Shown here: positions 50,597-51,399 of the stretch, in pieces
Position numbering within the stretch: the stretch's first letter is position 1
How the letters are laid out: the number at the start of each line of letters is the position of its first letter
NCBI RefSeq assembly: GCF_058153355.1
Contig: NZ_CM177019.1
Strand: one strand, 5' to 3'
Length of the DNA: 64,000 bases
The notes under the pieces: generated by a model
The model's input: the letters and a program-made list of their open reading frames with translations, nothing else
What the model was told of the DNA's origin: nothing
Database searches by the model: none
Program-made: the position numbers and the translations under genes

Positions 50597-51399
50597 ATGT
50601 TTTCTACAAACTTAATACAGAGTGATTATGGTAATTTAAATATTAAAAACCTTGCCTTCAACTCTTTTAAAGAAAGGCTGCAGTCTACCATGACAGCACT
50701 CACTTTCTTTATATCAACGGGTCAATGTGCCTGCGATGAAATAGCAGAATCAAACTTCAATTATATGATTACCTATATGTCTAACATTAACTATGATGCC
50801 TCAAAGCCAGGAGCGCCAGCACTTAGTTTTGATACATATCTGCAGGACAATGTTAAATATAGAGTGATAATTAATAATCTTTATGGTAGTGAAATTAGGA
50901 TAAGAGGTATTAATGAGAATTTTGTTGGGATGGATTTTACCTGTGAATTCCGACCAGAAAAAATGACCAATTTGATCAATATAAAAACAGGTTGGTTATT
51001 CAGTATTTAAGAACGATATACTATGAACAAAATTATATACATCCTGTTGGGAGCATTTTTGCTGCGATTCAAAAAAATGAGAGTCTCCTAAACTTTCCTT
51101 CGGTAATATCAATGCTTAATGTCAATCTTCTTTTTAATCCACTGAATCTTCCGGGAATGGGAAGTGGTGTGCTTGAAGAGATTATGAGTATTTCAGATAG
51201 TTCACTTAGAAAACGCCTTGGGTATGAGGTTTTAAGCTTCTCGCTACAAGCACATTCATTGAGTCAGGAATGTATTGATAAGTTAGCCATTTTTTTCGCT
51301 GACGATCTGTTTAAATATGAGTCAGTATGCATCGCCGCGATGGAATATTTAAAAAGTAAGGCAACGGCCCATATACAAAACGGACCGTTGCCAGCATAA
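50597..51399 (+). pseudogene. ydjO: ydjO-like AT-rich gene split by a frameshift into two overlapping ORFs (137 aa + 135 aa)
   Basis: ORFs 50597-51010 and 50992-51399 are in different frames and overlap by 19 nt; combined span 803 nt, about the 267 aa recalled for K-12 YdjO. Confidence 0.5.

Follow-up and report, generated by a model that had tools for sequence, protein, structure and literature searches.

The accessory orphan gene ydjO was, very probably, inactivated when one of six consecutive A (A6) was lost, and what is left in the stretch of DNA analysed here (64,000 nucleotides, in the following called the window) is a real and quite ordinary frameshift pseudogene. Strand slippage during replication is the most likely cause, by which one A of the A6 run would have been removed. 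Translation from the normal start should then give 130 native residues and seven wrong ones before it stops at positions 51008-51010, and the C-terminal 137 residues would be lost, save in a small fraction of ribosomes that may slip by one nucleotide (-1) by accident. From this we infer that the function of YdjO is lost. The deletion is inherited within the lineage of the window and has also been seen in other E. coli backgrounds. The correct annotation of the locus is therefore one frameshifted ydjO pseudogene and not two hypothetical proteins. All features discussed below are collected in Table 1.

Table 1. Coordinates of the ydjO locus and of other features within the window
Feature	Position	Strand	Description
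ydjO pseudogene	50597..51399	+	803 nt; intact alleles 804 nt, 267 aa; assigned by synteny, identity and one 1-nt gap
ORF1	50597..51010	+	137 aa, ATG start; native YdjO codons 1-130 (M...NIK), followed by 7 codons out of frame (TGWLFSI) and TAA
ORF2, as mechanically listed	50992..51399	+	135 aa, TTG start; native YdjO frame for residues 131-267
A5 homopolymer, site of the 1-nt deletion	50983..50987	+	A6 in intact alleles; gap at 50982/50983 vs EC42405 and Z0117EC0005
-1 slip window joining ORF1 to the native downstream frame	50947..51007	+	61 nt; three Z_ZZN sites: 50960 A_AAA, 50972 T_TTG, 50984 A_AAA
AT-rich cedA-ydjO intergenic region	50310..50596	+	together with ydjO forms a low-GC accessory islet of ~1.05 kb
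Terminator-like hairpin, probably the tcyP terminator	51360..51392	-	13-pair stem with 8 GC pairs, T-rich tail; shortly past the stop of tcyP (51403)
Rfam RF02012 (D1-D4)	19959-20106	-	112.5 bits
Rfam RF00029	17800-17876	-	65.5 bits
Reverse transcriptase/maturase ORF of group II intron	17881..19623		580 aa, YADD motif

The locus is defined by gene order as well as by sequence. When positions 50400-51500 were compared by megablast with 5,426 complete genomes of E. coli, it was matched everywhere, with the synteny cedA-ydjO-tcyP. At the nucleotide level, intact ydjO of strain Z0117EC0005, which is among the best matches, shares 99.5% identity with the stretch, and ydjO of K-12 shares 94.3%. In both strains a single ydjO coding sequence (804 nt, 267 aa) is annotated between cedA and tcyP. 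The flanking genes of the window are collinear with those of E. coli EC42405 and Z0117EC0005, and the closest complete E. coli genomes are 98.3-99.3% identical to the window. Sequence identity of 94-99.5% together with cedA upstream and tcyP downstream thus establishes orthology with intact ydjO, and the gene identity proposed in a sequence-only reading of this DNA is borne out. The same reading had taken the two frames (ORF2 being shifted by -1 with respect to ORF1) as parts of one protein of about 267 residues. The ORF coordinates, the overlap of 19 nt (50992-51010) and the length of intact YdjO all agree with this.

The lesion can be located exactly. Five A are found at 50983-50987 in the run ATATAAAAACAGG, and in the alignment of the 803 nt from the window with ydjO of Z0117EC0005 and of K-12 the sole gap is A5 against A6 in both references. 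It had been expected that a single-base indel would fuse the two ORFs and that alignment with K-12 ydjO would reveal its place; one missing A and no other gap is what such an alignment shows. The A5 run had further been described as adjoining the overlap of the two frames. Its involvement is correct, the run being, however, the site of the indel itself and not merely adjacent to it. By the deletion the ancestral codons ATA AAA AAC AGG (I K N R) are converted to ATA AAA ACA GGT, and the altered frame continues to a TAA. If one A is reinserted, a 267-aa protein is obtained that is 99% identical to the neighbouring alleles. The reading frame is thus broken by an identifiable lesion, and the intact state is that of the majority, as more than 99% of all ydjO carriers have A6. 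A two-ORF layout in K-12 and other strains, named in the sequence-only reading as grounds for refutation, is not what is seen: K-12 and more than 99% of the complete genomes that carry ydjO have one uninterrupted ORF.

Homopolymers are the classic site of sequencing and assembly errors, and the strain might truly be A6 with intact ydjO, one A having been dropped at base-calling or in the consensus. Such an artefact would be in line with the rarity of the allele: in the window-type background the exact A5 allele occurs in 0 of 5,426 complete E. coli genomes (an 81-nt A5 query found it in 0 of 1,071 matched complete genomes), and a scan of the GTDB species-representative genomes returned 0 matches. 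Moreover, the ydjO copy of ESBL 15, a complete genome with A5, contains two further 1-nt deletions, a pattern that resembles assembly noise. Against these points stands the recovery of the 137-aa product in its exact form, with the aberrant tail, on four contigs from Logan assemblies of independent SRA runs. The contig of SRR8656992 has A5 and, over 12.4 kb, shows 2 SNPs relative to the window; its source could be a very close relative of the window strain or the same strain re-sequenced. The contig of SRR21141960 also has A5 and is 37 SNPs away from the window in 6.6 kb, yet only 5 SNPs from intact Z0117EC0005. The A5 allele is thus reproduced in run assemblies on two haplotypes. Its presence on both reflects either repeated origin or transfer by short-tract recombination, and the identical 5' half of the gene shared by them fits either.

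A catalogue of every indel of the 64-kb window against EC42405 and Z0117EC0005 bears on the same question. Relative to these close references the ydjO deletion is the only gene-breaking indel; the remaining ones are intergenic (e.g. 38807 and 63924), compensating (36141/36157) or due to a defect in a reference, namely in chbR of EC42405 and in ydjY of Z0117EC0005. The two intergenic examples are homopolymer length differences versus both references, A6 to A5 at 38807 after spy and T5 to T6 at 63924 after rpmI, and they indicate that short-run slippage is ordinary polymorphism in the window lineage. The compensating pair lies, by its coordinates, inside astB (36141-36157), where, in comparison with EC42405, a +1 insertion is offset by a -1 deletion 16 nt away, so that the frame is kept and a few codons are altered. 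Since no other gene-breaking homopolymer indel is present in 64 kb, the assembly of the window does not appear error-prone. This and the same allele in independent assemblies largely answer the worry about a homopolymer error. The deletion looks real, having been seen in independent run assemblies, and we consider an artefact very unlikely.

A real deletion could still be read through. The A5 allele would then be a "pseudo-pseudogene", at which the ribosome or RNA polymerase slips in a programmed or selected manner (-1) to give a set level of full-length YdjO besides the 137-aa product. The required frame change is indeed -1, and A_AAA fits Z_ZZN, the minimal motif for a -1 shift (PMC5009743). 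A -1 slip of tRNA-Lys in the P-site at 50984 would yield ...NIKNRL..., which is exactly the wild-type YdjO sequence. For E. coli an unprogrammed suppression of 1-bp deletions of 1-10% in aggregate was reported with two test proteins (PMC10861913), which makes some leak plausible. The features of a programmed site are missing, however. The two-frame state is derived and rare, the orthologues having a single ORF. A tandem slippery heptamer X_XXY_YYZ is not present in register, as ATA AAA ACA in the 0-frame gives A_AAA_ACA and so the minimal Z_ZZN only; hence the A-site tRNA would be unable to re-pair. Even A_AAA_AAC slips far less readily in E. coli than A_AAA_AAG does. No stimulatory structure was detected downstream, where the 83 nt after the site fold no better than shuffled sequences (z = -0.43), and no SD-like G-rich motif occurs in the 20 nt upstream of the A run. 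Slippage of RNA polymerase fares no better: for transcriptional slippage in bacteria, runs of 9 A or T are cited (PMC5009743), and the five A of the window fall far short of these and of the length of about 9 A or T taken here for a rescue by this route.

Because the two-frame state is rare and derived and neither a tandem heptamer nor a stimulator or SD-like element is found, programmed frameshifting at A5 is not supported, and selected recoding appears highly improbable. Of the explanations offered in the sequence-only reading (pseudogene, programmed frameshift or slippery site) the first is the one that the evidence favours, RefSeq also calling identical A5 alleles frameshifted pseudogenes; programmed frameshifting finds no support, with a layout that is not conserved and no canonical heptamer or stimulator. 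A related view holds that the A5 allele is alive by low and constant -1 slippage of tRNA-Lys at 50984, so that the change from A6 to A5 would be a selected "dimmer" of an H-NS-silenced orphan and not a knockout. A5 would then rank as a "savior indel" (PMC5009743). An accidental -1 leak of full-length YdjO is plausible, though probably at low level, and no sign of selection accompanies it; we rate the selected dimmer just as improbable as selected recoding.

The distribution of the run-length alleles speaks to reversible switching. With a synthetic A5 query on the K-12-type allele, exact matches were obtained in 7 of 2,743 complete genomes (H5, H6, ESBL 15, ECZP248, O121 201805972, MSB1_9D and VL7S7), which represent at least 3 haplotypes, and an A7 query matched one complete genome. 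Part of the seven A5 cases may be long-read homopolymer errors or assembly noise. The A5 copies carry the RefSeq label "ydjO, pseudo, frameshifted", and the A6-to-A5 event is in this respect already known in kind. If the A run were a contingency tract by which ydjO is switched reversibly and frequently between on (A6) and off (A5 or A7), the natural occurrence of both A5 and A7 on several backgrounds would be accounted for. Typical contingency tracts are, however, longer than 6 nt, and frequent tract-length polymorphism among related strains is not seen: the off-states are very rare (7 A5 and 1 A7 among about 2,700 K-12-type genomes, 0 of 1,071 in the window type), and A5 is kept across near-identical isolates of the window lineage. 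Phase variation is very improbable. The A6 run is a weak hotspot at which slippage recurs, and not a switch. As such, within a dispensable and E. coli-restricted orphan, it provides a small data point, and beyond annotation the frameshift matters little. ORF2 as an independently translated gene was rejected, for it has no plausible start or SD (its TTG at 50992 directly abuts "ACAGG", later in-frame ATGs are without a properly spaced SD, and the Logan gene caller reports only a 95-aa remnant in this region) and the arrangement is not conserved.

Before its disruption in the window lineage ydjO was a real protein-coding gene, to judge from its intact alleles. Among them dN/dS is 0.19-0.24, compared with 0.03 for tcyP, and the probability that a frame of 265 codons stays open by chance, given the base composition, is about 1.5e-9, with 0 of 20,000 shuffles keeping the frame open. 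The window lineage itself has three nonsynonymous and one synonymous substitutions, all downstream of the frameshift. Relaxed selection was considered as an explanation of these four private changes; their position is suggestive, yet it is not significant (p ~0.07) and the proposal was dropped.

Scans of intact YdjO against Pfam and NCBIfam yielded nothing usable; the one NCBIfam match reached 15 bits, where the cut-off is 450. When 1.84 billion representative proteins were searched exhaustively with HMMER, no true homologue outside E. coli/Shigella came up; the output consisted of fragments from E. coli and of one protein (P0027) that looked like a distant homologue, with 27% identity. The latter was discarded, as it is encoded on a contig in which A and G are swapped: this Logan contig of 2,042 nt (SRR33321306) becomes K-12 cedA-ydjO-tcyP after the purine swap, with 99.07% identity to K-12 over 2,042 nt. 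A public run with systematically exchanged purines thus pollutes protein databases with fake "divergent" homologues. As far as sequence comparison can tell, YdjO is a true orphan restricted to E. coli/Shigella, and a published account likewise describes it as specific to E. coli/Shigella and of unknown function (PMC11057252). The AlphaFold2 model of the restored protein (mean pLDDT 54, pTM 0.46) is too poor to support claims about a fold or domains.

The gene is part of a variable piece of the chromosome. GC content in ydjO and the upstream region is 0.31-0.38, versus about 0.5 in the flanks, and the intergenic region between ydjO and cedA is among the "promoter islands" of K-12 that a paper lists where it deals with H-NS binding (PMC3661553). 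In about 1,180 of 5,424 complete genomes (~22%) ydjO is wholly absent; in strain 4/1-1 the whole islet (window positions 50310-51400) is missing, and cedA and tcyP are 46 bp apart. The AT-rich leader and the gene thus form a presence/absence polymorphism of ~1.05 kb across E. coli. The gene is dispensable, and the A5 mutation is tolerated for this reason. Interruptions of other kinds occur as well, and IS1 has struck the locus repeatedly: it interrupts ydjO in strain 1916D6, and in O121 201805972 a copy of IS1A is located just upstream of ydjO, at the usual position of the cedA annotation. In many draft assemblies the sequence breaks off within ydjO, at codons 126-161, and "partial" proteins result, which suggests that a repeat or an inserted IS lies close to the A run in some lineage. 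Use of ydjO as a qPCR marker specific to E. coli/Shigella has been suggested (PMC11057252), and here it should be kept in mind that the gene is missing in the above share of complete genomes and occasionally frameshifted or interrupted by an IS, i.e. it is an imperfect universal marker of E. coli.

Two further features of the window deserve mention. The terminator-like hairpin that probably belongs to tcyP is located inside the coding sequence of ydjO, in its last 40 nt, and this end of the gene is therefore likely to be constrained by two functions; a substitution private to the window at 51371 (P to H) falls in the loop of the hairpin. Far from ydjO, between topB and gdhA, the minus strand carries a group II intron (17800-20106, about 2.3 kb) that is absent from E. 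coli EC42405.

Among known systems the frameshifted RefSeq alleles of ESBL 15, O121 201805972 and H6 are closest to the allele described here, as the same gene has suffered the same A6-to-A5 deletion in the same run with the same two-ORF outcome. They differ in being K-12-type ydjO, about 94% identical to the window, whereas the window allele belongs to the group of Z0117EC0005 and EC42405, in which A5 is found in no complete genome. K-12 ydjO itself is the orthologue by synteny and sequence, equally AT-rich and without a Pfam or NCBIfam family, and differs by its A6 run and one continuous ORF. The -1 sites of IS1 insAB' (A_AAA_AAC) and dnaX (A_AAA_AAG) resemble the locus in their A-rich run read by tRNA-Lys. 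IS1 uses the heptamer A_AAA_AAC, and the intact ydjO allele contains, by chance, the like of it in register (ATA AAA AAC). In the window, in contrast with insAB' and dnaX, this heptamer is destroyed (A_AAA_ACA), there are no stimulators, the two-frame layout is not conserved and nothing indicates that two products are needed.
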